From: Isurus oxyrinchus
Taxonomy: Eukaryota
Direction: 5' to 3'
Assembly (NCBI GenBank): GCA_026770705.1
Contig: JANJGN010000034.1
Coordinates: 15,748,001 to 15,812,000 of the forward strand
DNA length: 64,000 nucleotides
In this document: positions 1 through 58,564 of the stretch, piece after piece
Layout of the letters: the number at the start of each line of letters is the position of its first letter
How positions within the stretch are numbered: position 1 is the stretch's first letter
The notes under the pieces: generated by a model
What the model saw: the letters and a program-made list of their open reading frames with translations, nothing else
Database searches by the model: none
Told to the model about the DNA's origin: nothing
Translations under genes and position numbers: made by a program

Positions 1-59
1 TCCTGATTCCCCCCTCCCTTTGATCACTGCTGAAATGTTCCAGCAGTCACAGCACTTAC

Positions 60-117
60 CTGAAACAGCAGCAACAACACTGAGCAGCAGCAGGAGTAGT
101 TTCTGTAAGTTGTGTCC
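60..117 (-). CDS. Gene G1 leader (signal peptide) exon; gene runs off the window start
   Basis: ttcttgttgcag|GGA...TCA G|gtaagt encodes GHNLQKLLLLLLSVVAAVS(G), phase 0 to 1. Mirror of 58237-58294. Confidence 0.8.
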
Positions 118-227
118 CTGCAACAAGAAACCACAGTTACCCCCTTTACAACAGATTCACTTCTGGTTGATGACTGGGCTGGGCCCAGCTAAGCGCATGT
201 GTAGGTTTGATCCCCGCCCCTTTTTAC

Positions 228-245
228 CTGCAGCTCCTTTTCCAT
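228..245 (-). CDS. Gene G1 candidate first coding micro-exon MEKELQ
   Basis: ATG GAA AAG GAG CTG CAG|gtaaaa. The phase-0 donor matches the leader exon acceptor 110 nt downstream. Confidence 0.55.
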
Positions 246-654
246 CCATTCCGGCCAATACAAGCTTAAAGGTAAAAGTCGATCCTTTCACCATTTCAAA
301 AATCTACAGCGATCCGATAGAGGAAACTGGCTTTTTATTCACGAATAGAACTGCAGCATCTCAATCAACACATCCGAAAACTACCGGCCGCTCAGTCTCT
401 CCCTTTACCTCAAAACAACTCGTTTGTCTCATTCTCTCTTTCTGGGCGCACCCGCTCCACTGAATAAACCAGGAAAAACACCCTCTGCTGTGAGAAAACT
501 GCAGCAAAGACTGAAATATCCGAGCAGCCAGAGATATGTGGCTTTCAGCTAAATTATATACCAAATAAACAATCCCACAGTGACTCCGGACTGAAAACCC
601 GCTCGTGCAGCAGCCAAGAGCGGGTGGATAAAATACAAACAGGTAAAAACAGAG

Positions 655-1012
655 AGTTCAGTGAGAATAAACCCGCAGTCTGGTTCCTGTATTAAAGGGG
701 TTCAGTCAGATAAACGCAGAGTATGGTTCCTGTATTAAAGGGGTTCAGCGAGAATAAACCCAGAGTTTGGTTCCTGTATTGAAAGGGTTCAGCGAGAATA
801 AACCCAGAGTTTGGTTCCTGTATTAAAGGGGTCCAGTGAGAATAAACCCAGAGTCTGGTTCCTGTATTAAAGGGGTTCAGTGAGAATAAACCCAGAGTCT
901 GGTTCCTGTATTAAAGGGTTCAGTCAGATAAACCCAATGTCTGATTCCTGTATTAAAGGGGTTCAGTGAGAATAAACCCAGAGTCCGGTTCCTGTATTAA
1001 AGGGGTCCAGTC
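655..1012. repeat. 41-42-bp tandem array (ggggttcagtgagaataaacccagagtctggttcctgtattaaa), about 8-9 units
   Basis: Directly visible. Mirror at 57258-57700. Short copies at 23878-23965, 31685-31730 and 35118-35205. Confidence 0.95.
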
Positions 1013-1067
1013 ACATGATGGAGCTACTGAGTTCAGTATTGCAGGGACATTTGAGCATTTTTGATAA

Positions 1068-1740
1068 CAAGACTTGCATTGATATAGCACCTTTCATGGC
1101 CACAGGATGTCCCAAAGTGATTTATAATCAACAAAATACTTTACTACTTACAATAAAATAATATACTAACTGTGAAGTGAAGTCTTTTTGAACCATGGTA
1201 ATGCATGAAATGCGGCAATTAATTTGCGCACAGTTAACTCCCACAAATGCTGGCTCAGGACAAAAGCAGATCTCACCTGTTTTTAATGATGTGGGTTCAG
1301 GGATAAATATTGGGCTCAGGTCTTCGGGAAAACTCGCCCTGCTTAACTTCTAAATAGTGGCCATGGGATTTTTCTCATTTCTCTGAGAGCAGACAGGCTT
1401 CGGTTTAATGTTTCATCCAAACAACAGCATATCCAACAGTGTGGGTCTCCCAATCTGTAGACCCTCCGACAATGCAGCATTCCCTCAGTACTGACCCTCC
1501 GACAATGCAGCATTCCCTCAGTACTGACCCTCCGACAATGCAGCATTCCCTCAGTACTGACCCTCCGACAGTACAGTGTCCCCTCAATACTGATCCTCTG
1601 ACAGTGCAGTTCCCCCTCAGTACTGAAAGTCAGAAAATGCAGTACTCCCTCAGTATTGCACTGGGAATGTTAGACTGGATCTGGGGCTCATGTCTCTGGA
1701 ATGGGATTCAGAAGTGAGAGTGTTCCCCACTCAGTCATTG
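1068..1740 (-). mobile_element. Deu-domain SINE (SacSINE1/AmnSINE-like) with internal 33-bp tandem expansion
   Basis: Reverse strand reads cagtactgagggagtgctgcactgtcggagg...atcccatggccactattt...aatatttatccct...gctatatcaatgcaagtctt, recognised from memory as the shark DeuSINE body and tail. Confidence 0.75.
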
Positions 1741-2764
1741 TCGGACTTTAATACAGACACTCAGCACTGGATCAATGCTGTCCTGAATTGTTCCCAGTAG
1801 ATGTGAAACCCAGTCTATACATTCAAGGCTGAGAGGTTTTGACTCAAAGGGATATGATGATCAGATGGAAAGTGGAGTTGATGGAGAAGATCAGGCACGA
1901 TCTTATTGAGGGGGCAAGTTTTGAGGGGATGAATGGCCTCCTCCTGCTCCTATTTCTGATGTGTTTGGAATGGATGTTCCCAGTGTGGGATGGACAATCT
2001 TGCCTATTCCCTTGTCCCTTACAGTGTGTAGTCAAGACCCGACGGTGTGAGGGACTGAAACCTCCCTCAGCATCCCAACTACCCTGCGGTTCAGTGGGTA
2101 GCTCTGAGTCTGAAGGTCGTGAGTTCACAGAGCCGCTCCAGAGAGCTGAGCATGAAATTCAGGCCAACACCAGCTTCACTGCGATGCCAGATTAAACCTC
2201 CCCACATCACTTTTCCCTTCTTTGAGAATCTGCCTAAAACTTTTTTCCTCTAATATCCCCTCACGTGGATCTGGCTAAAGGGCCATCTGGACCCCAGAGG
2301 GAAAAGATGCCTCAGCCAGAGCAGCAGCTAATATTGATCTCAGTGCTCAGAGTGAGAGAGGGGAATGACTTGTTGACATTCCTGTCCTGGTCCCTGTCTG
2401 GAAACTCCTGCTGGACATCAGGATCAGGCTTCGATGCAATGTTACATAAGCTGCTGAATCTAAAGGATTTGTCTAACAAGGCTCTGCTCCCAGCAGCGAG
2501 TCTTCCTACACAGTGAATGTAGTCACAGAGAAAGGGCTACAACACAGCTGGTCAAATGTTCCAACGCTCACTTACCCTGAATGAGGATCCACATTGAGGA
2601 TTAAACCTTGTGAAATTAAATCCCCTCTGTCAAAACTCTGACAGATGAAGGATGGATGTTTATGTGGGGCTAACGGAGGGTGACAGGTATCCACATGTCA
2701 CCATGATTCAGTGGGTAACACTCTCACTCAGAGTCTGAAGGTTGTGGGTTTAAACCCCACTCCA

Positions 2765-3240
2765 GGCTGGTGGGGTGGAAGGTGAGGACAAGGGGACTCC
2801 TAACGTGGTCTTCGGGGGTGGGGGGTCAGAGGGGTGAGAGCATAAGTGCAGGAAATGGGATGGGGGTCTTGTTAACCACATTGCTGGGGAATTGGTTAAG
2901 GAAAAAGATCAGTTCTACGATCAGAACAGATGTTACCAAGTGGGAGAAAATTGTGAGAAGTATCGTCGAGGTAGCTGTGGGATTGGGTGGGATTCTAGTG
3001 AATATTCTTTGACAGGAGATCCCCAGAAATTCAGTCATCATCATCAACGTAGCAGTAAAAGAGGTGGGGGATGGGGCCCAAGTAGGACTGGACCAAGGAA
3101 AGTTCCACATATCCTACTAAAAGGCCGGCAGAGCTAGTGTCCACGTGGGTGCTAATAGCTCACACCTTTGATGTAAAGTGAATGAGTGGAGGTAAAGGTG
3201 AGAACAAGTTCAGCCAGGTGGAGAAGGATGGAGGCAGGAG
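2765..3240 (-). mobile_element. Old decayed Penelope-like RT fragment (copies at ~28935-29550 and ~54895-55490)
   Basis: gtgaggacaagggg and gtgagaacaagttcagccag match the RT/thumb region of the young element at 22960-23610. Confidence 0.7.
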
Positions 3241-4740
3241 GAGAAACTGGCAGCCAAAGAGAATTTGTGTTTTTGGGGGCTGCAATGTAACTCCATTTAT
3301 ATTAAAAGAGAATTTTTCCTTAAAAGGTGTCTGCAATTCAGTTGTCTGGGCCCCAAGCTCTGGAAAACTGATCTCATTTTCATCCTCTGACCTAATGCCT
3401 CCAGATGTGGTTTGGTATCAAATTCTCTTTTATAATGCTCTGTGAAGCACCTTGGGACATTTAAAAAACACCTTTAACATTATAAAATACAACTTGTTCA
3501 TGACGAGATTCAGGAACAAGTCTGGACTCCTGTCATTATTCAGTTGCTATTGTGATGTGTGAATACTATTTCCAAGTTCCTGTATTTTCTCTCCGTGTCT
3601 GTATAAGGGTTTCCACCTGTGAAGAAGTTGAATCGCTCTGTTTGTTCATGCCAAAACCATTTCCACCCCAGGAAAGGTGAAGGGAGATCACACACTCCCT
3701 CCGTCCCAATCCCTTCCCTTCCCCTAATGCCCAATCACCAGAGGTGCTGACTGCATGATCACTCCTGGCCTCCGGAAGTTCCCACAATCACAGATACCAG
3801 TCTTCAGCCAATCTCATTCACTTCTCACATCGGGAGACTTACTGCCTGCAGACAGCATGACCTCTGTTCAGGCAGTGACTACCAGAGTCATTAAACATCA
3901 GACTGTAGATCCACTCATTTCAGCATCGGTCTATCTTTAATTAGACCTTGGATCAAAAATGACATGTAGAAAAGTAAGAAATATACCTGACAAATGTATA
4001 GACACATACAAAAATATTTAGATTAGAAATTTTAGACATCCTTTGTCAAATATGATCAATTACTGTTTGGAATAAAAGCTGCATTTAAAAAAGGCAAGAT
4101 TCAAATATACCAAATGTATCTGCATCATTTCTGGCAAGAAACAGTTTCAATCTGTAAACTATCTACAATCTGAATTCTGGCTGTAAAACACTTGCTGACA
4201 ATAATGTCGTTGCTGGCTTTTGCCCAGAGGGAGTTTCTGAAGCCTCTTCCCATGTTCAACACTGTGGAAGCAGCATCACTACAAGGGCTGCAGTGTTTAA
4301 AATTGAGACGGACAATAAACGGGACCCTGGCAGCATCACCCACACTGAGAACAAGTGAATAAACTCATCAGAAATTACCTGATGTTCCCACTCATTCATC
4401 AGTAGGAAGTTACCATCTCACACAGGGAGTGATCAATGGGTACACAGCTAAAGATGGTCCTGTACGTTCCTGAGACTAGGTTTAGACACAGGCTGTAACA
4501 GGAATGCAGACAGATAATGCAGAGAATGAAATACTTGGAGAGCTTTTCTAGTAAATGGAGAATACTTCCACTGGGAGATTCCCTCCTGAGATTGTGCTGG
4601 TCAGGACGGTTTGTGCAAAGTGGGAAGTGATTGTTGATCCCAATCCTGAGCTCAGACATTCCACCAGGAATCACTAGATAACCACAATACTGGCCTGATT
4701 TTCCCCTCCCTGACACATGCTCAGTGCAGGGGAAACTCAG

Positions 4741-4850
4741 CTAGTGCTGGACAGACCTGATCCCCTGAAGGTTTTCTTCTCCAGCCGCTCCATCCTGCTG
4801 CTCAGGTGCTGTTGTCACAAGGCCCCGTGCGTCACCCCAACAGGTCACCT
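4741..4850 (-). other. Possible terminal cytoplasmic exon of G2 (EVTCWGDARGLVTTAPEQQDGAAGEENLQGIRSVQH*); mirror starts at 53286
   Basis: gtcgcag acceptor with an open phase-1 frame and hydrophilic composition. Its link to upstream exons is unresolved. Confidence 0.3.
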
Positions 4851-5592
4851 CTGCGACAACGTAAGATGCTTCATTTTGATTGATATGGTGTCTACTTTGT
4901 TTCCCAGGAGAGAAAAACCAGCAGAGTTCAGGTGACATTAAAAGAATCCAACACTTTGGACAAGTGTGTAAAGGAGCCGTTCAGGAGCACAGACCAATTA
5001 AATTACACTCAACATCCTGGGTACCAATAGCAGCTGGAAAATGGGTCACAGGAGCCGCATGGTGATGGAGCACAGACTGTAGAGGAGAGGAGGCTCATAG
5101 GGGAAGCAATGGGCAAGAGGTGGACACTCCACAGGAGCTGTGCTGACCGACAGAGGAAGGGTCAGTGGATAGAGTTAGAAATCCTGCAATCGTCCCTCCT
5201 CCCACTGCGAGGGGTGTATGTGGGGACAGGCGGTGAACATGGAGATGTGGATATTGAGTGAAACAAGGGAATCCAAGATGGACTTCCCAGTGACTAAATC
5301 ATCAAATATCCGGGTTAAAGGGCGGTGATTTGAAAAGTGTAGGAGGAGACTGAACAGCAACAACTTGCATTTATATAGCCCAATTCCTTCACCGGCCTAT
5401 ATCTCTTTGCAGCCTCTTTGTATCCTCCTCAGTTTACTTTCCCATTGAGCTTTGTATCATCAGCAAAATTGGACATATTACACTCTATCCCCTCACCTAA
5501 GTCTTTGATCTAGATTGTGAATAACTGATGATTCAGCACCAGTTACATTGTGAGCTTTAATCTTGTGGAACAGCCTGTTGTGTGGCACCTGA

Positions 5593-6181
5593 TCAAATTC
5601 CTTCTGAAATTCCAAATATATTCCTCATCCACTCGCCGAGCACCAGTACCCGAGGCTGGAGCTCGCCGAGCACCAGTAGCCGAGGCTGGAGCTCGCCGAG
5701 CACCAGTAGCCGAGGCTGGAGCTCGCCGAGCACCAGTAGCCGAGGCTGGAGCTCGCCGAGCACCAGTAGCCGAGGCTGCAGCTCGCCGAGCACCAGTAGC
5801 CGAGGCTGGAGCTCGCCGAGCACCAGTAGCCAAGGCTGGAGCTCGCCGAGCACCAGGACCCGAGGCTGGAGCTCGCCGAGCACCAGTAGCCGAGGCTGGA
5901 GCTCGCCGAGCACCAGTACCCGAGGCTGGAGCTCGCCGAGCACCAGTACCCGAGGCTGGAGCTCGCCGAGCACCAGTACCCGAGTCTGGAGCTCGCCATG
6001 CACCAGTACCCGAGTCTGGAGCTCGCCGAGCTCCAGTACCCGAGTCCGCAGCTCGCCGGGCACCTGTACCCAAGTCCGCAGCTCTCTGGGCCCTCCTGCT
6101 GAAGCGATCGGATCCAACCTCCGCCCGGGACACAAAATCTCCAGGCAGTTTCCCCCTCCTCTCAAGATGCTAGCTAACTGA
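5593..6181 (-). CDS. G2 candidate cytoplasmic exon: QLASILRGGGNCLEILCPGRR...(LGELQPRLLV)n...[13 protein letters not shown]
   Basis: Acceptor tactgatctttttcacag|T. Only the phase-2 frame is open after it, and the TM exon ends in phase 2 (TG|). Part of ORF 5593-6372. Confidence 0.45.
5632..6085. repeat. 30-bp GC-rich minisatellite (gctcgccgagcaccagtagccgaggctgga), about 15 units
   Basis: Directly visible. Unit length is divisible by 3. Confidence 0.97.
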
Positions 6182-7312
6182 CTGTGAAAAAGATCAGTAA
6201 CCAGTGCCCTGTAGTTTTGGGTTGTGTCCAGGGATAGGCTGGGAGCCAAAACTGAATCACAGGGTCGCACTAACAGTAAATCTGCCACTGACAATGGAAT
6301 ATCCACAAGTGTCTGCTGTAGAGAATTCCAAACAGCCAGGCGGAAATAGCCTTTCAACATCAACCCTGTCAAGACAGAATATTATGTTTCATGGTGATCA
6401 TTCTCTTTTTGAACTTCAGAGAATGCAGATCCATTTTACTTATTCTCTCCTTGTCGGTCACCCCAGTGAACCCAGGATTGAGCCTACTGAACCTTTGTTA
6501 CACTCCCTTATCACTCCATCACTCCCTCAAGTCACACATAACCTGCCTAGGAGAAGCAGACCAAACTATACACAGTTCTCCCGGCTTTGGTCCAATCCAT
6601 GCCCCATATAAACTGCAGTGAATCTTCCTCACTCTTCTACTCCAAACACTTGCAATAAAGGCTAACCTCCTATTTACCTTCCAAATCATCCGCATGTTAA
6701 GTTGGTGATTTGTGTATAAATCACTCCAAATGTCTTTTACCGATGTCCTGCCTTGAAAATATATTCTACTTTTCCATTTTCCAAATGTTCACAATTTCAA
6801 CATTATACTCCATCTGCCTCCATTTTTGCCCAATTACTTCACCGGCCTATATCTCTTTGCAGCCTCTTTGTATCCTCCTCAGCTTACTTTCCCATTGAGC
6901 TTTGTATCATCAGCAAAATTGGACATATTACACTCTATCCCCTCACCTCAGTCATTGATCTAGACTGTGAATAACTGATGATTCAGCACCAGTTACATTG
7001 TGAGCCCTAATCTTGTGGAACAACCTGTTGTGTGGCACCTGATCAAATTCCTTCCGATATTCCAAATATATTGCTCATCCACTGGTTCCCCCAGAAGGAT
7101 AATATTTGTTCATTTTCAATCCATGGGGAATGTTCAGCAGCTACAGGATGACAAGCTGGAAGTGATTGGATAATGCTGCTCAATGATAGGGTGGATTGAA
7201 GCATCCTCACAGCTCAGTAAATGGACAGGTTTAGATGTCAGCAACATTTAAGAGAACATTATAAAACAAAAACAGGATTAAAATGGAAACAATGAAACAT
7301 TCTAGAACTCAC

Positions 7313-7442
7313 CATGTTTGTCGCCTTTGGAATACACAAACCGCAATTCCAGAAAGCAAAACTCCAGCAAAAAAACCAACAGCAACTCCAACTCCAATTC
7401 CAAATCCAAATCCAGGCCGTGCTCCTGTACAAAGTACAGGAC
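7313..7442 (-). CDS. G2 transmembrane exon (GPVLCTGARPGFGFGIGVGVAVGFFAGVLLSGIAVCVFQRRQT)
   Basis: tctctag|GT...ACA TG|gtgagt. Hydrophobic span followed by basic stop-transfer QRRQ. Phase 1 to 2. Confidence 0.85.
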
Positions 7443-8184
7443 CTAGAGACAGAATGAAGACATTAACAGACTGGGACACACTTACATAACTAACAGCAGA
7501 GATCATTAGCATCTAGTGTTTCAGAACCAGCCCCAGTACAAACAGATCCCTGGTTAATTCTAGTCCTGGTGGGATGTGGGAGGTTACATACCAATAATCA
7601 CACACACACCAGGCCACCTACAGCTCCGTGCACACAAACACTGTACCACAATGTGTCCAATACATGCTTTCCAATAGAGATAACTGGACACTGACCAGCA
7701 GCAGCCTCCCTTCAATTAAAGCTAACAACCTGCTGAAAGAGAGAAGGGGAATTTTAAAAAAATAATGTTTTTTGGCTGGGAATGCAATGAGGTTGGATGG
7801 GTTACCAGTTTGTACCCAGATCAATATGATTCTCCACTGAATTCAATGTTGACGATTCCCCGGGTCACTCCCTCCCGACTGTATATCACTGTGCCCACAC
7901 CTCTGTTGGGTCTGTCCTGCTGGTGGGACAGGACATGCCCAGGGATGGTGATAGAGGAGTCTGAGATGTAGGGCTGATTCTGAGAGTATGATTATGTCAC
8001 ACAGCTCTCCCAACTTGGACACAAGTCCCCAGATGTTAGTGAAGGAACATTGCAGAGTTGACTGGGCTGGGTGTGTCTTTGTTGTTTCCTGATTCGATAC
8101 CTGGGTCTCAACCAGTGATCCGTTCAGTTTCGTTCCGTTTTTTCTGTCTCACGGTTTGATACAACCTGAATGAAGTGGCCGAGT

Positions 8185-8490
8185 AAGTCAGAGGACAGTT
8201 AAAAGTCAACCAGGTTAATGTGGGACTGGAGTCACAGAGACCAGACTGGTTAAGGACGGCAGGTTTCCTTCACTAAAGGGACATTTGTGAACCAGTTGGG
8301 GTTTTACAATAATCCAACAGCTTCAGGGTCACTTTTATTGGGACCAGCTTGATATTTCCCAGATTTTAAATTTAAATTCAGTTAATTAATTAAAATGCCA
8401 TCGTGGGTCTGAATTCACATTGTGTGGGTGATTAGTCCAGGCCTCCGGATTTCTAGTCTAGTAACATAATCACTGCACTACCAAACCCAT
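8185..8490 (-). mobile_element. Shark tRNA-type SINE (paralogous copies at ~49745-50050, ~63440-63720, ~62195-62575, ~44950-45190, ~12760-12995)
   Basis: Shared motifs ttcaaatcccaccatggca, gtgaccctgaagctgttggattgttgtaaaaccc and gtgactccagtcccaca. Confidence 0.7.
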
Positions 8491-8535
8491 CACTCAGAGA
8501 TTAAATACAGGACACCTGAAACAGAAACTTCTCAC

Positions 8536-8807
8536 CTCTTACAGAGAGATGGATGTGATCAGTGTGCTCCCAGTGTAACCCTGCACCTGTTCTCTTGTAA
8601 ATCTGACATCGATCCTGGTTCTGGTCTGACTTCCTGAGGTCAGAGATTAGAACTGACCTGTTGCCTTATTCCAGTTGATCAGTGAACAGGTTTGTTCTGT
8701 TTCTGAACTGTGGGTCTTGTCCTGTCACTTCCCATTCCCATTGACAAATTTCACACTCAGATACCCCCCAGGCTACCAGTAAATCTGAGACTGGGACATT
8801 CCCTTTG
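8536..8807 (-). pseudogene. 5'-truncated second IgV pseudo-exon (V2) in the G2 intron
   Basis: Reverse strand encodes ...QDPQFRNRTNLFTDQLE*GNRSVLISDLRKSDQNQDRCQIY. In-frame TAA. About 600 bp including the exon start is deleted relative to arm B 48828-49428. Confidence 0.85.
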
Positions 8808-9150
8808 AAATCTGAAACAAAAATTGCTGCAAAAACTCAGCAGGTCTGACAGCATCTGTGGAGAGGAAGACAGAGTTAATGTTTTGAGTCTGTTGGACTC
8901 TACATCAGAACTAAAGGGGATCAGAAATGTGGTGAAATATAAGCTGTTTAAGGGGGGGTGGGACAGGTGGAGCTGGACAGAGGGCCAGTGATAAGTGGAG
9001 GCAATGGAGAGATTGCTAAAGATGTAATAAATAAAGGGACAAAGGGGTGTTGACGGCAGTGATATTAGCTAAAGGATGTGCTAATGGTGACATTAATGGT
9101 AGAAAGCAGGATAAGCAAGTGACAGATGGCCCTTCTGGGGTGGGGTGGGG
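8808..9150 (-). mobile_element. Old Penelope pLTR-derived element with degenerate hammerhead (mirror ~48490-48850)
   Basis: aaaactcagcaggtctg...aaatataagctg(t)ttaag, same layout as the young pLTRs. HHR-like stretch at 8874-8912. Confidence 0.7.
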
Positions 9151-9159
9151 TGAAGGGAT

Positions 9160-12100
9160 CCTAATATCCTCACCAGGACGTTTGGTCGTGCTGTTGGGGA
9201 AGGTTTAAACTTGATTGGCAGGGGGATGGGAACCTGGGGTGGGTAAATTCAGAGTGCAGAGGAGAAAAACTGGCAGTGGGAAGTAGAGAAATATCAACTC
9301 ATAATGAGGATATATCAGAGAGATGCATCAAGGTAGATAGGATATCTGGAGAGTTTGCTAGAATTAGAGTTGGCAACAGTAAGACATTAGGTGGGGTCAG
9401 GATAAGGGGGAAAAGAAAAAGCCGAAATAAGGGCTAATGTGCATGTATGTGAATGCACAGAGTGTGATTAATAAGACTGGTGAACCGCAGGCACAGGTTG
9501 ACAAGTGGAATTATGATATTATCGCTATAACAGAGACCTGGCTCAAAGAAGGGCAGGACAGGGCATTAAATATTCCTGGGTAAAAGGTGTTTAGGAGCGA
9601 CAGGAAAGGAAGAAACAGGAAAGGAGTGACAATATTGGTTAACGATAGCATTACAGTACTGGACAGAGAGGATGTTCCAGAGGAGTCAGGGATGGAATCT
9701 CTCTGCCTAGAGGTAAGGAATGGGAAAGGTGCAATAACATTGATTGGTGTGGTATATAGAGCACCAACTAGTGGAAGGGATGTGGAGAAACAAATTTGCA
9801 AAAGAAATTATGGAGACGTGCAAGAGTTATAGAGAATCATACGGGTACCTTCCATCCTCCAAATATAGACTGGGATAGGAATAGTACAAAACATAAGAGG
9901 GGCGAGAGTGTTCCTGGAACGTGTTCAAGATCATTTTCTACAGCAGTATGTTTCCATCCAACAAGAAGACCTGCACTTTTGGACCTGATTCTGGGAAATG
10001 TGTTGGCTCATGTGGATCAAATATCAGTGGGAGAGCATCTACAGGATAGTGACCATGTATCATAAGGTTTAGGTTAATCACGGAAAAGGACAGAGAACAA
10101 TCCACAGCAGAAATAATTAATTGGAGGAGAGCAAACTTTAATGGGATGAGAATGCATCTGAGTTGAGTGAGTTGGAATCAAGTGTTGGCAGAAAAGACAA
10201 TGGCTGAACAATGGGCTGCCTTCAAACAAAAAGTATTCCAGGCAATATCAAGATGTATTCCTTTGAAGGGGAAAGGTCGGACAAATAAATCCAGAGTGTC
10301 CTGGATGATGAGACAGATAGCAGTAAAGATGAAAAGGAAGAAGTGCACGTACGACAGACGTCAGGTAGAAAATACAATGGAGAATCAGACTGAATATAGA
10401 GGGACTAGAAAGGATGTGAAGGACTAAAAAGTAAAGCAAGGAGAGAGCATGAAAAGAGGCTGGCAGCAAACAAAAAAAGGTATCTTAAGGTCATCTATAA
10501 GCAGGTAAACAATAAAAGGATAGTAAAAGGAAGAGTAGGGCTGATTAGGGACAAAAAAAAAAGGAAGCTGCATGTGGAGGATGGGGAAATTGCGCAGGTG
10601 TTGAACGAGTACTTTAAATCTGTCTTTACAAAGAAAACTTGTTATCCAGGCCGAGGTGGGACAGTAGGTAACTGGAACACTTACAATTGAGAGGAAGGTG
10701 GTGTTGGAAAGTCTACCTTTACTTAAAATATCAGTACCAGAAGTGGATGAGATGCATCCAAGGGTACTGAGAGGAGTGAGAGTGGAAATTACAGAGGCAC
10801 TAGTAATACTATTCCAATCTTCCTTAGGCACAGGGGAGGAGAAATGCAAATGTTACACCCTTATCCAAAAGTGGGTGCAAGGATAAAGCTGACAACTACA
10901 GGCCAGTCAGTTTGACACCAATGGGAGGGAAACTTCTGAAAACTATAGTACGGGATGAAATCAATAATCACTTAGACAAGTGCAGGATAATTAGGGAAAG
11001 CCAGCATGGATTCATCAGGGGAAAATCATGTATAACTAACTTGACGGAATGTTTTGAGGAGGTAACAGAGAAGGTTGATAAGGGCAATGCTGTTGATGTG
11101 GTGTATATGGATTTTCAAAAGGCATGTGATACAGTGCCACACAATAGACTTGAGTGGAATGAAAGGGAAAGTAGGCACTTGGATAAGAAATTGGCTGAGT
11201 GATAGGAAACAGAGAATAGTGATAAATGGTTGTTTTTCAGATTGAAGGAAGATTTGTAGTGGAGTTCCTCAGGGGTCAGTGTTTGGACCCTTGCTCTTCC
11301 TGACATATATTAATGACCTAGACTGTGGTGTGCAGGGCATGATTTCAAAATTTAAAGATGGTACAAAGATTAGAAATGTTATCAACTGTGATGGGAATAA
11401 TCCTGAACTTCAAAAGGACATAGGCATGTTGGTGGATTGGGCAGACAAGTAGCAGATGAAGTTCAATGCAGAGAAGAGTGAGGTGATTCATTTTGGCAGG
11501 AAAGATATGGTGAGAGAGTATAAAATAAAGGGAGATCCTCTAAAGGAGGTGCAGGAACAGAGAGATATTGATGTATATGTACTTTGGTCATTGAAGATGA
11601 TTGGGCATGTCCAGAGTGCAATTAATAAAGCATATAGTATCTTAGGGATTATTAATAGGGGTATTGAGTACAAGAGTAAGGAGGTCATGTTAAACTTGTA
11701 TAAGACACTAGTTAGGCCTCATCTGGAGTACTGCGTCCAGTTCTGGGTGCCATACTTGAGGAAAGATGGGAAGGCATTGGAGAGAGTACAGAGGAGATTC
11801 ACAAGGATAATTCCTGGGATGAAGAACTGGAGCTATGAGGATAGATTAGAGGTTGGGACTGTTTTCCTTGGAGAAAAGAAGGCTGAGAGGAGACTTGATA
11901 GAGGAATTCGAGATCCTGAGGGGTAAAGACAGGGTAAATAGTGAGAAACTGTTCCCACTCAGGAGATCATCAAGAACTAGAGGGCACAGATACAAAATAA
12001 TTGGTAAAGGAGTAAATGTGATGTGGGGAAAGTCTTTTTCACCCAGAGGGTGGTTGGAGTCTGGAACAAACTTCCTGAAAGGGTGGTGGAGGCAGGATCG

Positions 12101-19528: not shown

Positions 19529-19656
19529 CTACAACAGGAAAACACAGTTAGCCCCTTTACAACAGATTCACTTCCTCATCTGATTGAGGAGGGGCCTGGG
19601 CCGAGTTAAGCGCCTGCGTGGGTTTATGACCCGCCCCTTGAAGATGGACAGGGGAC

Positions 19657-49366: not shown

Positions 49367-49699
49367 GTGACTCGTCTGTGTCAATTTCTGGGTTCCTTTG
49401 GGAGCAGCTTGTGCTGCCTTGCACCTACAAAGGGAATGTCCCAGTCTCCGATTTACTGGTATCCTGGGGGGTGTCTGAGTGTGAAATTTGTCAATGGGAA
49501 TGGGAAGTGACAGGACAAGACCCACAGTTCAGAAACAGAACAAACCTGTTCACTAATCAACTGGAATAAGGCAACAGGTCAGTTCTAATCTCTGACCTCA
49601 GGAAGTCAGACCAGAACCAGGATCGATGTCAGATTTACAAGAGAACAGGTGCAGGGTTACACTGGGAGCACACTGATCACATCCATCTCTCTGTAAGAG
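49367..49699 (+). pseudogene. Second IgV pseudo-exon (V2) in the G3 intron
   Basis: Acceptor mutated (tccctg|GT for ttccag|GT), locally disturbed frame, TAA at 49567-49569. Donor AGA G|gtgag retained. Confidence 0.88.
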
Positions 49700-50789
49700 G
49701 TGAGAAGTTTCTGTTTCAGGTGTCCTGTATTTAATCTCTGAGTTATGGGTTTGGTAGTGCAGTGATTATGTTACTAGACTAGAAATCCGGACGCCTGGAC
49801 TAATCACCCACACAATGTGAATTCAGACCCACGATGGCATTTTAATTAATTAACTGAATTTAAATTTAAAATCTGGGAAATATAAAGTTGGTGCCAATAA
49901 AAGTGACCCTGAAGCTGTTGGATTATTGTAAAACCCCAACTGGTTCACAAATGTCCCTTTAGTGAAGGAAACCTGCCGTCCTTAACCAGTCTGGTCTCTG
50001 TAACTCCAGTCCCACATTAACCTGGTTGACTTTTAACTGTCCTCTGACTTACTTGGCCACTTCATTCAGTTTGTATCAAACAGTGAAACAGAAAAAACGG
50101 AACGAAACTGAACGGATCACTGGTTGAGACCCAGGTATCGAATCAGGAAACACAAAGACACACCCAGCCCAGTCAGCTCTGCAATGTTCCTTCACTAACA
50201 TCTGGGGACTTGTGTCCAAGTTGGGAGAGCTGTGTGACATAGTCATACTCTCAGAATCAGCCCTACATCTCAGACTCCTCTATCACCATCCCTGGGCATG
50301 TCCTGTCCCACCAGCAGGACAGACCCAACAGAGGTGTGGGCACAGTGATATACAGTCGGGAGAGAGTGACCCGGGGAATCGTCAACATTGAATTCAGTGG
50401 AGAATCATATTGATCTGGGTACAAATAGGTGACCTATCCAACCTCATTGCATTCCCAGCCAAAAATGTTATTTTTTAAATTGCCCCTCTCTCTCTTTCAG
50501 CAGGTTGTTAGCTTTAATTGAAGGGGGGCTGCCGCTGGTCAGTGCCCAGTTATCTCGATTGGAAAGCGTGTATCGATCACAGTGTGGTACAGTGTGTGCG
50601 TGCACGGAGCTGTGGGGTGGCCTGGTGTGTGTGATTATTGTTATCTGACCTCCCACATCCCTCCAGGACTAGAATTAACCAGGGATCTGTTTGTACTGGG
50701 GTTGATTCTGAAACAGTCAGTGCTGAAGGTCTCTGCTGTTAGTTATGTAAGTGTGTCCCAGTCTGTTAATGTCTTCATTCTGTCTCTAG

Positions 50790-50913
50790 GTCCTGTACTT
50801 TGTACAGGAGCACGGCCTGGATTTGGAATTGGAGTTGGAGTTGCTGTTGGTTTTTTTGCTGGAGTTTTGCTTTCTGGATTTGTGGTTTGTGTATTCCAAA
50901 GGCGACAAAAATG
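50790..50913 (+). CDS. G3 transmembrane exon (GPVLCTGARPGFGIGVGVAVGFFAGVLLSGFVVCVFQRRQK)
   Basis: tctctag|GT...AAA TG|gtgagt. Confidence 0.85.
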
Positions 50914-52044
50914 GTGAGTTCTAGAATGTTTCATTGTTTCCATTTTAATCCTGTTTTTGTTTTATAATGTTTTCTTAAATGTTGCTGACATCTAAATCTG
51001 TCCATTTACTGAGCTGTGAGAATGCTTCAATCCACCCTATCATTGAGCAGCATTATCCAATCACTTCCAGCTTGTCATCCTGTAGCTGCTGAACATTCCC
51101 CATGGATTGAAAAGGAACAAACATTATCCCTCTGGGGGAACCAGTGGATGAGGAATATATTTGGAATATCAGAAGGAATTTGATCAGGTGCCACACAACA
51201 GGCTGTTCCACAAGATTAGGCCTCACAATGTAACTGGTGCTGAATCATCAGATATTCACAGTCTAGATCAATGACTGAGGTGAGGGGATAGAGTGTAATA
51301 TGTCCAATTTTGCTGATGATACAAAGCTCAATGGGAAAGTAAACTGGGGAGGATACAAAGAGGCTGCAAAGAGATATAGGCCGGTGAAGTAATTGGGCAA
51401 AAATGGAGGCAGATGGAGTATAATGTGGAAATTGTGAACATTTGGAAAATGGAAAAGTAGAATATATTTTCAAGGCAGGACATCGGTTAAAGACATTTGG
51501 AGTGATTTATACACAAATCACCAAGTTAACATGCGGATGATTTGGAAGGTAAATAGGAGGTTAGCCTTTATTGCAAGTGTTTGGAGTAGAAGAGTGAGGA
51601 AGATTCACTGCAGTTTATATGGGGCATGGATTGGACCAAAGCCGGGAGAACTGTGTATAGTTTGGTCTGCTTCTCCTAGGCAGGTTATGTGTGACTTGAG
51701 GGAGTGATGGAGTGATAAGGGAGTGTAACAAAGGTTCAGTACGCTCAATCCTGGGTTCACTGGGCTGACCGACAAGGAGAGAATAAGTAAAATGGATCTG
51801 CTTTCTCTGAAGTTCAAAAAGAGAATGATCACCATGAAACATAATATTCTGTCTTGACAGGGTTGATGTTGAAAGGCTATTTCCACCTGGCTGTTTGGAA
51901 TTCTGTACAGCAGACATTTGTGGATATTCCATTGTCAGTGGCAGATTTACTGTTAGTGCGACCCTGTGCTTCAGTTTTGGCTCCCAGCCTATCCCTGGAC
52001 ACAACCCAAAACTACAGGGCACTGGTTACTGATCTTTTTCACAG

Positions 52045-52210
52045 TCAGTTAGCTAGCATCTGGAGAGGACGGGGAAACTGCCTGGAGATTTTGTGTCCCG
52101 GGCGGAGGTTGGATCCGATCGCTTCAGCAGGAGGGCTCAGAGAGCTGCGGACTTGGGTACAGGTGCCCGGTGAGCTGCGGACTTGGGTACTGGAGCTCAG
52201 CGAGCTCTAG
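52045..52210 (+). other. G3 candidate cytoplasmic exon, cut short by CAG>TAG at 52208-52210 (or spliced at CCG|gtgagc, 52169)
   Basis: Same acceptor as arm A 6181. Frame QLASIWRGRGNCLEILCPGRR...ELSEL*. Confidence 0.4.
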
Positions 52211-52505
52211 ACTCGGGTACCGGTGCTCAGCGAGCTCCAGACTCGGGTACCGGTGCTCGGCGAGCTCCAGACTCGGGTACCGGTGCTCGGCGAGCTCCAG
52301 ACTCGGGTACCGGTGCTCGGCGAGCTCCAGACTCGGGTCCCGGTGCTCGGCGAGCTCCAGACTCGGGTCCCGGTGCTCGGCGAGCTCCAGACTCGGGTCC
52401 CGGTGCTCGGCGAGCTCCAGCCTCGGGTCCCGGTGCTCGGCGAGCTCCAGCCTCGGGTCCCGGTGCTCGGCGAGCTCCAGCCTCGGGTCCCGGTGCTCGG
52501 CGAGC
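52142..52505. repeat. 30-bp minisatellite, arm B copy (about 12 units, ctcggcgagctccagactcgggtaccggtg variants)
   Basis: Directly visible. Confidence 0.97.
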
Positions 52506-55500
52506 GGATGAGGAATATATTTGGAATTTCAGAAGGAATTTGATCAGGTGCCACACAACAGGCTGTTCCACAAGATTAAGGCTCACAATGTAACTGGTGC
52601 TGAATCATCAGTTATTCACAATCTAGATCAATAACTTAGGTGAGGGGATAGAGTGTAATATGTCCAATTTTGCTGATGATACAAAGCTCAATGGGAAAGT
52701 AAACTGCGGAGGATACAAAGAGGCTGCAAAGAGATATAGGCCGGTGAAGGAATTGGGCTATATAAATGCAAGTTGTTGCTGTTCAGTCTCCTCCTACACT
52801 TTTCAAATCACCGCCCTTTAACCCGGATATTTGATGATTTAGTCACTGGGAAGGCCATCTTGGATTCCCTTGTTTCACTCAATATCCACATCTCCATGTT
52901 CACCGCCTGTCCCCATATACACCCCTCGCAGTGGGAGGAGGGATGATTGCAGGATTTCTAACTCTATCCACTGACCCTTCCTCTGTCGGTCAGCACAGCT
53001 CCTGTGGAGTGTCCACCTCTTGCCCATTGCCTCCCCTGTGAGCCTGCTCTCCTCTACAGTCTGTGCTCCATCACCATGCGGCTCCTGTGACCTATTTTCC
53101 AGCTGCTATTGGTGCCCAGGATGTTGAATGTAATTTAATTGGTCTGTGCTCCTGAACGGCTCCTTTACACACTTGTCCAAAGTGTTGGATTCTTTTAATG
53201 TCACCTGAACTCTGCTGGTTTTTCTCTCCTGGGAAACAAAGTAGACACCATATCAATCAAAATGAAGCATCTTACATTGTCGCAGAGGTGACCTGTTGGG
53301 GTGACGCACGGGGCCTTGTGACAACAGCACCTGAGCAGCAGGATGGAGCGGCTGGAGAAGAAAACCTTCAGGGGATCAGGTCTGTCCAGCACGAACTGAG
53401 TTTCCCCTGCACTGAGCCTGAGTCAGGGAGGGGAAAATCAGCCCAGTATTGTGGTTATCTAGTGATTGCTGGTGTAAAGGCTGAGCTCAGGATTGGGATC
53501 AACAATCACTTCCCACTTTGCGCAAACCGTCCTGACCAGCACAATCTCAGGAGGGAATCTCCCAGTGGAAGTATTCTCCATTTACTAGAAAAGCTCTCCA
53601 AGTATTTTATTCTCTGCATTATCTCTCTGCATTCCTGTTACAGACTGTGTCTAAACCTAGTCTCAGGAACGTACAGGACCATCTTTAGCTGTGTAACCCA
53701 TTGATCACTCCCTGTGTGAGATGGTAACTTCCTATTGATGAGTGAGTGGGAACATCAGGTAATTTGTGAAGAGTTTATTCACTTGTTCTCAGTGTGGGTG
53801 ATGCTGCCAGGGTCCCATTTATTGTCCATCTCAATTTTAAACACTGCAGCCCTTGTAGTGATGCTGCTTCCACAGTGTTGAACATGGGAAGAGGCTTCAG
53901 AAACTCCCTCTGGGCAAAAGCCAGCAACGACATTATTGTCAGCAAGTGTTTTACAGCCAGAATTCAGATTGTAGATAGTTTACAGATTGAAACTGTTTCT
54001 TGCCAGAAATGATGCAGATACATTTGGTATATTTGAATCTTGCCTTTTTTAAATGCAGCTTTTATTCCAAACAGTGATTGATCATATTTGACAAAGGATG
54101 TCTAGAATTTCTAATCTAAATATTTTTGTATGTGTCTATACATTTCTGTCAGGTATTTTTCTTACTTTTCTACATGTCATTTTTGATCCAAGGTCTAATT
54201 AAAGATAGACCGATGCTGAAATGAATGGATCTAAAGTCTGATGTTTAATGACTCTGGTAGTCACTGCCTGAACAGAGGTCATGCTGTCTGCAGTCAGTAA
54301 ATCTCCCGATGTGAGATGTGAATGAGATTGGCTGAAGACTGGTATCTGTGATTGTGGGAACTTCCGTAGGCCAGGAATGATCATGCAGTCAGCCTTTCTG
54401 GTGATTGGGCATTAGGGGACGGGGAGGGAGGGAGTGTGTGATCTCCCTTCACCTTTCCTGGGGTGGAAATGGTTTTGGCATGAACAAACAGAGCAATTCA
54501 ACTTCTTCAGGGGTGGAGACCCTTACACAGACACGGAGAGAAAATACAGGAACGTGGAAATAGTATTCACACATCACAATAGCAACTGAATAATGACAGG
54601 AGTCCAGACTTGTTCCTGAATCTCGTCATGAACAAGTTGTATTTTATAATGCTAAAGGTGTTTTATAAATGTCCCAAGGTGCTTCACAGAGCATTATAAA
54701 AGAGAATTTGATACCAAACCACATCTAGAGAAATTAGGTCAGAGGATGAAAATGAGATCAGTTTTCCAGAGCTTGGGGCCCAGACAACTGAATTGCAGAC
54801 ACCTTTTAAGGAAAAATTCTCTTTTAATATAAATGTGGTTACATTGCAGCCCCCAAAAACACAAATTCTCTTTGGCTGCCAGTTTCTCTTCCTACCTCCA
54901 TCCTTCTCCACCTGGCTGAACTTGTTCTCACCTTTACCTCCGCTCACTCACTTTACATCAAAGGTGTGAGCTATGAGCACCCACATGGACACTAGCTCTG
55001 CCGGCCTTTTAGTAGGATATGTGGAACTTTCCTTGGTCCAGTCCTACTCTGGCCCCATCCCCCACCTCTTTTACTGCTACGTTGATGACGATGACTGAAT
55101 TGGTGCTGCTTTAGACTCTCAGCCTGAACTGGAAAATTTCTTCAACTCTGCTTTCATTTTCCACCCTTTCCTCACCTTCATACAGTCCATTTCCAACTCT
55201 TGCTTTCCTCAAATTCTCTGTCACCATTTCTGGGGATCTCCTGTCAAAGAATATTCACTAGAATCCCACCCAATCCCACAGTTACCTCGACGATACTTCT
55301 CACAAGTTTCTACCGCTTGGTAACATCGGTTCTGATCGTACAACTGATCTTTTTCCTTAACCAATTCCCCAACACTGTGGTTAACAAGACCCCCATCCCA
55401 TTTCCTGCACTTATGCTCTCACCCGTCTGACCCCCCACCCCCGAAGACCATGTTAGGAGTCCCCTTGTCCTCACCTTCTACCCCACCAGCCTGGAGTGGG

Positions 55501-56524
55501 GTTTAAACCCACAGCCTTCAGACTCTGAGTGAGAGTGTTACCCACTGAGTCATGGCTGACATGTGGATACCTGTCACCCTCTGTTAGCCCCACATAAACA
55601 TCCATCCTTCATCTGTCAGAGTTTTGACAGAGGGGATTTAATTTCACAAGGTTTAATCCTCAATGTGGATCCTCACTCAGGGTAAGTGAGGGTTGGAACA
55701 TTTGACCAGCTGTGTTGTAGCCCTTTCTCTGTGACTACATTCACTGTGTAGGAAGACTCGCTGCTGGGAGCAGAGCCTTGTTAGACAACTCCTTTAGATT
55801 CAGCAGTTTATCTAACATTGCATCGAAGCCTGATCCTGATGTCCAGCAGGAGTTTCCAGACAGGGACCAGGACAGGAATGTCAACAAGTCATTCCCCTCT
55901 CTCACTCTGAGCACTGAGATCAATATTAGCTGCTGCTCTGGCTGAGGCATCTTTTCCCTCTGGGGTCCAGATGGTCCTTTAGTCAGATCCACGTGAGGGG
56001 ATATTAGAGGAAAAAACATATTCAAAGGTTTAGGCAGATTCTCAAAGAAGGGAAAAGTGATGTGGGGAGGTTTAATCTGGCATCGCAGTGAAGCTGGTGT
56101 TGGCCTGAATTTCATGCTCCACTCTCTGGAGCGGCTCTGTGAACACACGACCTTCAGACTCAGAGCTACCCACTGAACCGCAGGATAGTTGGGATGCTGG
56201 GGGAGGTTTCAGTCCCTCACACCGTCGGGTCTTGACTACACACTGTAAGTGACAAGGGAATAGGCAAGATTGTCCATCCCACACTGGGAACATCCATTCC
56301 AAACACATCAGAAATAGGAGCAGGAGGAGGCCATTCATCCCCTCAAAACTTGCCCCCTCAATAAGATCGTGCCTGATCTTCTCCATCAACTCCACTTTCC
56401 ATCTGATCATCATATCCCTTTGAGTCAAAACCTCTCAGCCTTGAATGTATAGACTGGGTTTCACATCTACTGGGAACAATTCAGGACAGCATTGATCCAG
56501 TGCTGAGTGTCTGTATTAAAGTCC

Positions 56525-57205
56525 GACAATGACTGAGTGGGGAACACTCTCACGTCTGAATCCCATTCCAGAGACATGAGCCCCAGATCCAGTCTAACAT
56601 TTCCAGTGCAATACTGAGGGAGTACTGCATTTTCTGACTGTCAGTACTGAGGGGGAACTGCACTGTCAGAGGATCAGTATTGAGGGGACACTGTACTGTC
56701 GGAGGGTCAGTACTAAGGGAATGCTGCATTGTCGGAGGGTCAGTACTGAGGGAATGCTGCATTGTCGGAGGGTCAGTACTGAGCGAGTGCCGCATTGTCG
56801 GAGGGTCTACAGATTGGGAGACCCACACTGTTGGTTATGCTGTTGTTTGGATGAAACATTAAACCGAAGCCTGTCTGCTCTCTCAGAGAAATGAGAAAAA
56901 TCCCATGGCCACTATTTAGAAGTTAAGCAGGGCGAGTTTTCCCGAAGACCTGAGCCCAATATTTATCCCTGAACCCACATCATTAAAAACAGGTGAGATC
57001 TGCTTTTGTCCTGAGCCAGCATTTGTGGGAGTTAACTGTGCGCAAATTAATTGCCGCATTTCATGCATTACCATGGTTCAAAAAGACTTCACTTCACAGT
57101 TAGCACATTATCTTATTGTAAGTAGTTAAGTATTTTGTTGATTATAAATCACTTTGGGACATCCTGTGGCCACGAAAGGTGCTATATCAATGCAAGTCTT
57201 GTTAT
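56525..57205 (+). mobile_element. DeuSINE with internal 33-bp units
   Basis: Mirror of 1068-1740. Confidence 0.75.
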
Positions 57206-57257
57206 CAAAAATGCTCAAATATCCCTGCAATACTGAACTCAGTAGTGCCATCATGTG

Positions 57258-57700
57258 ACTGAACCCCTTTAATACAGGAACCAGACTCTGGGTTTATTCT
57301 CACTGAACTCCTTTAATACAGTAACCAGACTCTGGGTTTATCTGACTGAACCCCTTTAATACAGGAACCAGACTCTGGGTTTATCTGACTGAACCCCTTT
57401 AATACAGGAACCAGACTCTGGGTTTATCTGACTGAACCCCTATAATACAGGAACCAGACTCTGGGTTTATCTGACTGAACCCCTTTAATACAGGAACCAG
57501 ACTCTGGGTTTATTCTCACTGGACCCCTTTAATACAGGAACCAAACTCTGGGTTTATCTGACTGAACCCCTTTAATACAGGAACCAGACTGTGGGTTTAT
57601 TCTCGCTGAACCCCTTTAATACAGAAACCATACTCTGCGTTTATCTGACTGAACCCCTTTAATACAGGAACCAGACTCTAAGTTTATTCTCACTGAACTC
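57258..57700. repeat. 41-42-bp tandem array, about 10-11 units
   Basis: (ctgaacccctttaatacaggaaccagactctgggtttatctga)n. Confidence 0.95.
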
Positions 57701-58108
57701 TCTGTTTTTACCTGTTTGTGTTTTATCCACCCGCTCTTGGCTGCTACAGGAGGGAGTGTTCAGTCCGGAGTCACTGTGGGATTGTTTATTTGGTATATAA
57801 TTTAGCCGAAAGCCACATATCTCTGGCTGCTCGGATATTTCAGTCTTTGCTGCAGTTTTCTCACTGCAGAGGGTGTTTTTCCTGGTTTATTCAGTGGAGC
57901 GGGTGCGCCCAGAAAGAGAGAATGAGACAAACGAGTTGTTATGAGGTTAAGGGAGAGACTGAGCAGCCGGTAGTTTTCGGCTATGTCAATTGAGATACTG
58001 CGGGTCTGTTGGTGAATAAAAAGCCAGTTTCCTCTATCGGATCGCTGCAGATTTCTGAAATAGTGAAAGGATCGACTTTTACCTTTAACCCTGTATTGGC
58101 CGGAATGG

Positions 58109-58126
58109 ATGGAAAAGGAGCTGCAG
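58109..58126 (+). CDS. G4 candidate first micro-exon MEKELQ
   Basis: ATG GAA AAG GAG CTG CAG|gtaaaa, followed by a 110-nt intron to the leader exon. Confidence 0.55.
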
Positions 58127-58236
58127 GTAAAAAGGGGTGGGGATCAAACCCACGCATGCGCTTCGCCCGACCCAGCCCAGTCATCAACCAGAAGTGAATC
58201 TGTTGTAAAGGGTGTAACTGTGGTTTCTTGTTGCAG

Positions 58237-58294
58237 GGACACAACTTACAGAAACTACTCCTGCTGCTGCTCAGTGTTGTTGCTGCTGTTTCAG
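58237..58294 (+). CDS. G4 leader exon (GHNLQKLLLLLLSVVAAVS)
   Basis: Canonical AG/GT. Phase 0 to 1, joining the V exon at 63060 as G|GT (Gly). Confidence 0.85.
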
Positions 58295-58564
58295 GTAAGT
58301 GCTGTGACTGCTGGAACATTTCAGCAGTGATCAAAGGGAGGGGGGAATCAGGAATTCATCTTGCTTTCAGGAGCTGTGTACTGCTGTGCACTGCAAGTGG
58401 TGCCATTGAGGGAGTGGACACAGTAGCTTCACATTACACATCATGATCCTGAGAACTGAAAGGGAGGCAGTTAATGTCTTTAGATTAACCCCTGTGATGT
58501 GAACAGTGGGACACTGAGCAACACTCGGTGACACTGGGATGGGTGACTGGGACCCAGTGACTCA

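Follow-up and report, generated by a model that had tools for sequence, protein, structure and literature searches.

The window, a stretch of 64,000 nucleotides from contig JANJGN010000034.1 of Isurus oxyrinchus, contains exons of two genes, A and B, on opposite strands to the left and right of the mirror centre (Table 1); positions are counted from its first base, and those that are negative or exceed 64,000 lie outside it. The N-terminus MDGKELQ of gene A also occurs in the white shark model P0019. The V exon of gene B-L is open and lies at -3639..-3977, outside the window, and the R1 tract resembling E-type paralogues holds an intact signal-peptide exon (38399-38459). A gene A with two V domains (V and V2) was considered and rejected, since V2 has a stop codon and has lost its acceptor, and the spliced joints listed bypass it.

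Table 1 Features of the locus (L, left copy; R1 and R2, right copies; TM, transmembrane)
Feature	Position	Strand	Remarks
Copy L of the ~41-kb A+B unit	1..26815	-	inverted; extends beyond the window edge, as far as about -13112
Gene B-L, possible exon 1 and signal-peptide exon	59..252	-	remainder outside the window
A-L tail exon	4739..4903	-	acceptor GG, not AG
A-L TM exon	7313..7442	-	
Left pseudo-V2 exon	8535..8808	-	5' part lost to a 601-bp deletion
A-L Pro/Thr-rich stalk exon	13530..13568	-	
A-L IgV exon	18172..18516	-	open
A-L signal-peptide exon	19474..19528	-	splice donor deleted, as in R2
Penelope-like element with 1.3-kb partial tandem duplication	20338..23855	-	left arm only among L, R1 and R2; counterpart 35228-37239
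A-L exon 1, coding part (MDGKELQ)	26443..26463	-	in promoter-like, G+C-rich sequence at the inner end of the arm
True strand switch	26816..27681	.	Penelope-like remnants, ~690 bp of them at 26815-27504
"Spacer"	27504..31884	+	truncated copy of the unit's 3' flank
Copy R1 of the unit	31885..64000	+	goes on to about 72850
A-R1 exon 1, coding part (MDGKELQ)	32246..32266	+	
R1 tract nearer E-type paralogues	38055..38667	+	95-98.6% to E-type; about 10% off L and R2
A-R1 IgV exon	39429..39773	+	private TGA at 39599-39601; CGA in L
A-R1 stalk exon	44379..44417	+	splice joints
Right pseudo-V2 exon	49367..49699	+	stop codon, acceptor lost; bypassed by spliced joints listed
A-R1 TM exon	50790..50913	+	
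A-R1 tail exon	53233..53397	+	acceptor GG at 53231-53232
Gene B-R1, possible exon 1 and signal-peptide exon	58107..58294	+	signal-peptide exon 58237-58294
B-R1 IgV exon	63060..63386	+	open, 12 nt deleted in frame; mirror counterpart of the B-L V exon beyond the window
Third copy R2	73026-111292		follows R1

The first-pass annotation had called the family immune-type, and the V domain indeed belongs to Pfam V-set, with CD276 (E = 3e-13) and VTCN1 as its best solved matches, followed by PD-L1 and MOG; in the ESM Atlas, only chordate V-set clusters were found. Sharks accounted for 55 of the 56 protein matches (top identity 96%, white shark). Neither a C-set match nor a B30.2 domain was detected in any of the 16 homologues scanned, no C exon lies between the V and TM exons, and the tail comprises about 55 residues. 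The tail exons of the five intact copies encode no tyrosine and thus no ITIM-type motif. The genes encode V-only, B7-H3-like membrane proteins that are present across sharks and likely immune, and they are predicted to act at the cell surface, as ligands in immune co-signalling or in adhesion. A literature search, with most subscription journals outside its scope, returned no paper describing such a shark V-only B7-H3-like family; it is apparently unstudied, its members carrying automatic names only. Homologues were located on scaffolds of 40, 44 and 165 Mb, outside the 16.4-28.8 Mb range of the shark X, and on scaffolds of 16.5 and 19.0 Mb, inside it. No homeobox match was found on the contig of the window among the 150 of 459 candidates scored, a result uninformative for X-linkage. 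The cluster is probably autosomal.

The proposed birth-and-death turnover agrees with the state of the genes (five of nine in the cluster look intact and four are defective) and with species-specific clades in a quick V-domain tree, built without the two V exons that carry frameshifts and without the left V2, which is truncated. Single-group clades comprised 10/10 horn shark rows (support 80), 4/4 sawshark rows (98) and 4/4 houndshark rows (90). The three B copies grouped apart from the white-shark copies (support 88), as did the A copies, with the branching of A unresolved. Concerted evolution would give similar species-specific clades. In the 17.5-Mb cluster, two of five V exons were defective. 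As a measure of diversifying selection on the ligand-binding domain, the dN/dS ratios were 1.2-2.6 between A, E and cluster-2 types, on just 1-6 synonymous differences, and 0.56-0.71 for B versus the others, with too few changes overall.

Spliced joints were recovered from leader to V exon in 4/4 runs and from V to stalk and from stalk to TM exon in 3/4. In addition, the donor of the TM exon was joined to a leader-exon acceptor in all four presumed-RNA runs. Circular RNA may be the source of this joint; given the dead tail acceptor and the white-shark model P0003, whose exons follow the A-then-B order of the Isurus oxyrinchus cluster, read-through into the next gene's leader (at 58237, 96% alike) is the simpler explanation. 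The stretch compared for spliced joints ended at 52100, short of that leader.

To characterize the mirrored arrangement, which had been described as a palindrome with arms of at least 26.5 kb (1-26815 and 31885-58353), we compared the window with itself and aligned the arms. Inverted homology was found between 1-26811 and 58353-31889 in blocks of 93-98% identity. The alignment contained 676 mismatches in 24,261 columns when poorly aligned ends were included and 576 in 23,669 columns after gap-masking (2.43%, or arms 97.6% identical), in line with the estimate of a few percent at most; these 576 differences comprised 319 transitions, 100 of them CpG-type, and 257 transversions. The mirrored stretch is thus real in this assembly, and it is one flipped ~41-kb unit facing same-direction copies. 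Flanking genome tiles extended the arms past both window ends to -13112..26815 and 31885..72533, about 40 kb each, and a looser mirror was seen further out (-13 to -30 kb versus 132-150 kb). It weakens outward, the E copies being 86-98% identical, and gives way to unrelated flanking sequence; no inverted match to the right-hand cluster was found for left tiles beyond -38 kb, and no N (assembly gap) was present within the 304 kb examined.

Inverted arms of more than 10 kb therefore exist, but the two-arm layout does not hold, since the ~41-kb two-gene (A+B) unit is repeated in tandem on the right side. The cluster spans 190 kb, with E, B and A on the left (-) and A, B, A, B, D and E on the right (+); the 5' part of gene D is E-like and its 3' part B-like. 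Family exons are all on the minus strand left of the centre and on the plus strand right of it, so that, as had been noted, the genes point away from the centre (9/9 cluster copies). Of the four gene copies counted originally, the two of gene A stand; the two of gene B are represented by their first exons only, and the second V exon of each arm is a pseudo-exon. Similarly, many of the insertions and deletions thought private to one arm are common to R2, although the 1.3-kb Penelope partial duplication is confined to the left arm. Indels of 322 and 131 bp group the right arm with R2, a 127-bp indel groups the left arm with R2, and a rearrangement at 52503-52758 is common to L and R1 and absent from R2. 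Private nonsense changes had been ascribed to both arms; the TGA in the right-arm V exon is the only one in coding exons. The leader-donor deletion of the left arm is common to R2, and the dead tail acceptor to all three copies.

The ~5-kb spacer is not single-copy: four further copies were found at about 95-97% identity. The segment 27504-31737 matched 68280-72505 (96.9%) and, inverted, -8867..-13084 (94.9%), with partial matches at 109067-111292 (95.0%) and 128196-131603 (95.7%). It begins exactly at a ~180-bp pLTR-like remnant that is present in 4/4 paralogous copies aligned. The neighbouring 26854-27474 is the 3' end of a Penelope-like element, and 27312-27668 forms a hairpin whose arms differ at 3/163 bases (inverted terminal repeat). 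The Penelope-type label rests on RT/GIY-YIG ORFs of related copies, in which the GIY-YIG profile scored 21.3-21.4 bits, just below the cut-off of 22.6. Since Penelope-like sequence makes up 10.4% of the region (29 intervals), its presence at the centre may be due to chance.

We then compared L, R1 and R2, and the results did not support the arm-to-arm conversion that had been suggested: L and R1 were the closest pair in 0/7 three-way blocks. In block II (R1 38.9-49.8 kb), the distances were 1.57% for L-R1, 1.58% for L-R2 and 0.51% for R1-R2; in block III (52.9-62.8 kb), they were 2.38%, 0.45% and 2.56%, respectively. This switch in the closest pair was highly significant (Fisher p = 8e-57), and site types formed 287 runs versus 515 ± 13 in 5000 shuffles (minimum 469). 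The longest identical run of L-R1 (457 bp) was within chance (about 340-440 bp; ~340 for L-R1); those of L-R2 and R1-R2 were 1169 and 1409 bp. L and R1 were closest (1.75%) solely in an ~800-bp R2 island that is 5.0-5.3% from both arms. Each arm thus shares a ~10-kb near-identical tract (about 0.5%) with R2, which indicates ectopic recombination or conversion among several copies.

Could the arms be two haplotypes that the assembler mis-joined head to head? Contigs of four DNA runs placed on 26440-26960 never bridged the left junction at 26815, the single contig over 26604-26811 fitting the R2-type promoter (3 substitutions, 1 gap), and the centre junction was not seen in 2/2 runs of organism B. 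These runs (two from one sample of organism A, two from organism B) were read to 48-88% each, and contigs drop variants, so that an unbridged junction is no evidence of absence. The segment 26818-26853 is high-copy in 3/4 DNA runs. Since the divergence of 1.6-2.4%, together with numerous large indels, exceeds the diversity of the epaulette shark about tenfold, a third copy is present, the mirror decays outward without a gap, and the junction has the layout of a typical Penelope inverted repeat (PMC3846280), we regard such a mis-join as very improbable. A subtler error, in which L and R1 are real and R2 is partly the other haplotype (e.g. an arm-exchanged allele) written in tandem, would make the mosaic partly an artefact. 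R2 is 0.45-0.51% from R1 and from L over about 10 kb each, near the allelic range; as this is only about 2.5 times the diversity of the epaulette shark (0.002, PMC10587355), haplotype mixing could mimic the R2 tracts. Inversion between inverted repeats produces such hybrid copies (PMC11534156), and a possible jump point exists where spacer and R1 tail differ by 0-0.2% for ~1 kb. But a single allele of L or R1 would not yield the 5% island, the ~1 kb of 3' flank that matches gene D without a difference or the separate Penelope-truncated end of R2. The R2-type promoter junction is also present in a DNA run, and no N gap was found, which makes this explanation unlikely.

A gene-converting palindrome of L and R1 would account for the separation of the three A and the three B copies from those of the white shark and for the 52503-52758 rearrangement, and the conflicting 601-bp deletion could stem from old conversion. 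The arms are, however, below the >99% identity of converting palindromes (10.1101/800185), their identical runs show no excess and the spacer is not unique, and we consider it quite unlikely. The palindrome merely results from the presence of an inverted unit in an array that mixes tandem and inverted copies and is not a stand-alone driver, and a "young" amplicon is doubtful: at the mutation rate of the epaulette shark, not of this species (PMC10587355), 1.6-2.4% corresponds to about 11-17 million generations.

We therefore favour, as the probable reading, an inverted unit copy facing a tandem array, whose members probably change through ectopic recombination and the conversion of long tracts, involving multiple copies rather than the two mirror arms. 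An inverted duplication may have brought A-B-E to face the array head-on, a Penelope terminal repeat holding one of the breakpoints, and unequal crossing-over would have added units and made gene D. R2 would have received a direct tract of ~11 kb from R1 and an inverted one of ~10-13 kb from L, over a distance of 70-100 kb, the 5%-divergent island being the presumed remainder between the two tracts; hybrid copies arising by NAHR are described in PMC11534156. The direction and order of these events are tentative. The 601-bp deletion that L shares with the copy at -34 kb conflicts with a simple tree. Gene A appears to be decaying in all three copies, and with its tail acceptor lost, its transcripts would be spliced onward to gene B.

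To summarize, the structure is routine segmental-duplication biology in an ordinary duplicated immune-type gene cluster, and it warns that, seen through a window, a single unit of a tandem/inverted array may be mistaken for a clean palindrome. The remaining interest lies in the family, whose V-only B7-H3-like genes underwent separate expansions in many lineages of sharks, and, if the tracts are real, in the traces that exchange between inverted copies has left over long distances in a genome that mutates very slowly. It is conceivable, and we propose it tentatively, that sharks possess a family of V-only immune ligands, derived from B7-H3 and so far undescribed, whose autosomal cluster swaps tracts of 10 kb between inverted copies lying 70-100 kb from each other, and in which a lost splice acceptor makes tandem neighbours read-through units that give receptors with two V domains, of the kind seen in gene models of the white shark and other sharks.

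The proteins share a V-set domain, a signal peptide, one transmembrane helix and a short tail with B7-H3 (CD276), B7-H4 (VTCN1) and PD-L1, but have a 13-residue Pro/Thr stalk in place of the IgC domain and are multi-copy in sharks. With the clustered IgSF families that evolve by birth and death (butyrophilin/MOG, CD300, KIR and CEACAM), the locus has in common its tandem arrangement, its pseudogenes and chimeric genes and its lineage-specific expansions, whereas B30.2, tail tyrosines (five intact copies) and a paired-receptor layout were not seen. Like Penelope-like retroelements (PMC3846280), the central remnant has an inverted pseudo-LTR hairpin at the element end, and related copies have an RT and GIY-YIG ORF; such elements occur at rearrangement junctions, and here the remnant marks the inversion junction, in which it may have had a causal role. 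With mouse X and primate Y palindromes (10.1101/800185), the locus shares inverted arms of >10 kb with duplicated genes, but its arms are 97.6% and not >99% identical, its spacer is multi-copy, the closest match is a third copy, and it is probably autosomal. Although it measures 190 kb rather than megabases and is represented by one haplotype only, the cluster resembles NAHR clusters of the human 10q11.22 type (PMC11534156) in its direct and inverted copies at 94-99%, its hybrid copies with ancestry switches and its gene-family cores.

Self-BLAST returned inverted blocks of 93-98% identity (1-26811 versus 58353-31889). The alignment of the left arm (L) with the right arm (R1) contained 676 mismatches in 24,261 columns, or 576/23,669 (2.43%) after masking near gaps, and these masked differences included 319 transitions, 100 of them CpG-type. 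The mirror of 1-26815 and 31885-58353 described in the first-pass annotation is therefore real in the assembly. Its arms had been given as a minimum, and they are indeed longer: flanks of 100 kb upstream (negative positions) and 140 kb downstream (304 kb in total without N) extended them to -13112 and 72533. Beyond the arms, the left side to about -30 kb still mirrors 132-150 kb; no inverted match to 26.9-153 kb was found for the tiles at -44 to -39 kb on the left. The earlier observation is largely right and its interpretation half right.

Rather than a pair of arms, the locus forms an array in which R1 is followed by R2, a third copy of the same ~41-kb unit with genes A and B. The ~5-kb spacer is itself a copy of the unit's end with four other copies at 95-97%; 27504-31737 matches 68280-72505 at 96.9% and three further copies at 95-96%. 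In the stretch where the orientation switches lie a Penelope-like 3' end, 89-95% identical to ten other copies, and a hairpin with 3 mismatches between its arms in 163 bases. A ~180-bp terminal-repeat remnant, present in 4/4 aligned paralogues, marks the exact start of the spacer homology. Penelope-like elements typically carry inverted pseudo-LTRs (PMC3846280), and recombination between repeats produces inversions in Drosophila (PMC6278893). The tie between the Penelope-like remnant and the switch is only suggestive, because 10.4% of -100..152 kb consists of Penelope-like sequence. A 43-44-bp minisatellite recurs at junctions of one gene's 3' flank with the next promoter and is a possible recombination hot spot.

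Features of the locus and of contig JANJGN010000034.1 (C34; the window is 15748001-15812000 of C34; L-numbers are tiles outside the window)
Feature	Position	Strand	Remark
E-L, B-L, A-L	left of centre, in that order	-	from exon positions
A-R1, B-R1, A-R2, B-R2, D, E-R	right of centre, in that order	+	from exon positions
Full left arm	-13112..26815		
Orientation switch	26815-27504		
Full right arm	31885..72533		
R1	31885-72850		
R2	73026-111292		
Direct copy of A intron	C34:15713529-15717693 (-34472..-30308)		4.1 kb, inside E-L
Decayed LINE	14797-17850; 40345-43168		long, with RT and endonuclease pieces; both arms, intron after V exon
LINE-related copy	about -52 to -55 kb		
Minisatellite	656-1011; 23859-23964; 35112-35224; 57256-57698; 72.5 kb; -20 kb; 136 kb		43-44 bp
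Second cluster	17.48-17.58 Mb (L051-L063)		
Third cluster	7.60-7.62 Mb (L064-L066)		
V exon	16.50 Mb (L022:1402-2208)		between two main clusters
Distant V exon	16.39 Mb		
Satellite array	about 15.938-15.952 Mb (L069-L070)		long; offsets multiples of about 37 bp among repeats listed; distant units about 80% alike
LTR-retroelement-like frames	about 15.648-15.668 Mb (L031-L032)		gag and integrase pieces, by eye

Evidence that L and R1 are paralogues comes from a divergence about ten times epaulette-shark diversity, the third copy, unrelated outer flanks and the lack of gaps. The locus may be partly mis-assembled, since the 0.5% tracts of R2 are closer to allelic divergence and the left junction was bridged by none of the contigs from 4 DNA runs (48-88% of each run was read; contigs drop variants).

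The V exon is a Pfam V-set domain whose best solved matches were CD276, VTCN1, PD-L1 and MOG. Sharks made up 55/56 protein hits, with a top identity of 96% (white shark LOC121271031), which makes a lamniform source likely. The exons follow the order exon 1 (MDGKELQ), signal peptide, V, 13-residue Pro/Thr stalk, transmembrane (TM) exon and ~55-residue tail, and no IgC or B30.2 domain was found in 16/16 scanned homologues; PD-L1/2 have an IgV-IgC layout (PMC12151841). Literature searches of titles and abstract starts found no description of this V-only shark family. Splicing was followed in contigs from 4 presumed-RNA runs, which covered 3 samples and 2 organisms; among the joints listed, leader-V was present in 4/4 runs, and V-stalk and stalk-TM in 3/4 each. 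Since these contigs are 88% alike to the locus and may derive from paralogues, they show the family's exon structure and not expression of these copies. A joint from TM donor to leader acceptor, listed in 4/4 runs, is consistent with read-through from A into B, here out of frame, and the white-shark model P0003 has the A-then-B exon order that read-through would give. In the annotated basking-shark model P0016, a family member is joined with a PRDM7/9-like KRAB-SET protein; read-through or a mis-joined model is the probable cause.

By exon inspection, 5/9 cluster genes (B-L, B-R1, B-R2, D and E-R) are intact, though no exon 1 was found for B-R2. The leader donor is missing in A-L and A-R2, A-R1 has a TGA at 39599, the tail acceptor reads GG in 3/3 A copies, and E-L has a V frameshift, a tail stop and no TM exon that we could find. 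The second cluster contains five V exons (3/5 intact) with one 100-N gap nearby, the third a decayed leader-V-V2-TM gene and an orphan TM exon with stops. The V exon at 16.50 Mb is much closer to CD276 (E 1e-22); a B7-H3-like gene nearby may be the source of the family.

A quick tree built from 83 V domains placed the three A copies with one white-shark A (support 93) and united the three B copies in a clade (88) next to four white-shark B domains. This makes it likely that the A-B pair is older than the white-shark split and the triplication, or its homogenisation, more recent. At 7e-10 mutations per site per generation, a rate from the epaulette shark of another shark order (PMC10587355), 1.6-2.4% divergence corresponds to 11-17 million generations. 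Shark X chromosomes measure 16.4-28.8 Mb (10.1101/2025.02.26.637739); homologues lie on 40-230 Mb scaffolds, which suggests that the locus may be autosomal.

The three-way alignment revealed a mosaic. Private sites of L, R1 and R2 numbered 133, 25 and 26 in block II (38.9-49.8 kb, 10,036 columns) versus 11, 185 and 26 in block III (52.9-62.8 kb, 8,233 columns; Fisher p = 8e-57), and site types formed 287 runs in 823 sites versus 515 ± 13 when shuffled, with 50.9-52.9 kb and the two ends set aside as misaligned. L and R2 were 99.1-99.9% identical in 7/9 1-kb tiles over -4 to +5 kb. A 322-bp deletion common to R1 and R2, and 127-bp and 1069-bp differences common to L and R2, agree with the blocks; in conflict, L's 601-bp deletion junction is also found in the A-intron copy near -34 kb, otherwise the outgroup, despite ~3.7% divergence. 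R1 has a ~610-bp E-type tract spanning the leader exon. Non-allelic homologous recombination (NAHR) is expected to yield such hybrid copies (PMC11534156). The proposed arm-to-arm conversion found no support: L-R1 was the closest pair in 0/7 blocks, and its longest identical run (457 bp; L-R2 1169, R1-R2 1409) is near the chance expectation of about 340-440. L-R1 was closest, at 1.75%, solely in an R2 island 5.0-5.3% from both and flanked by R2's two near-identical halves. Arms closer than orthologues are the recognition mark of converting palindromes (10.1101/800185), whose arms are >99% identical, whereas those described here are 2.43% apart and fall short of that identity.
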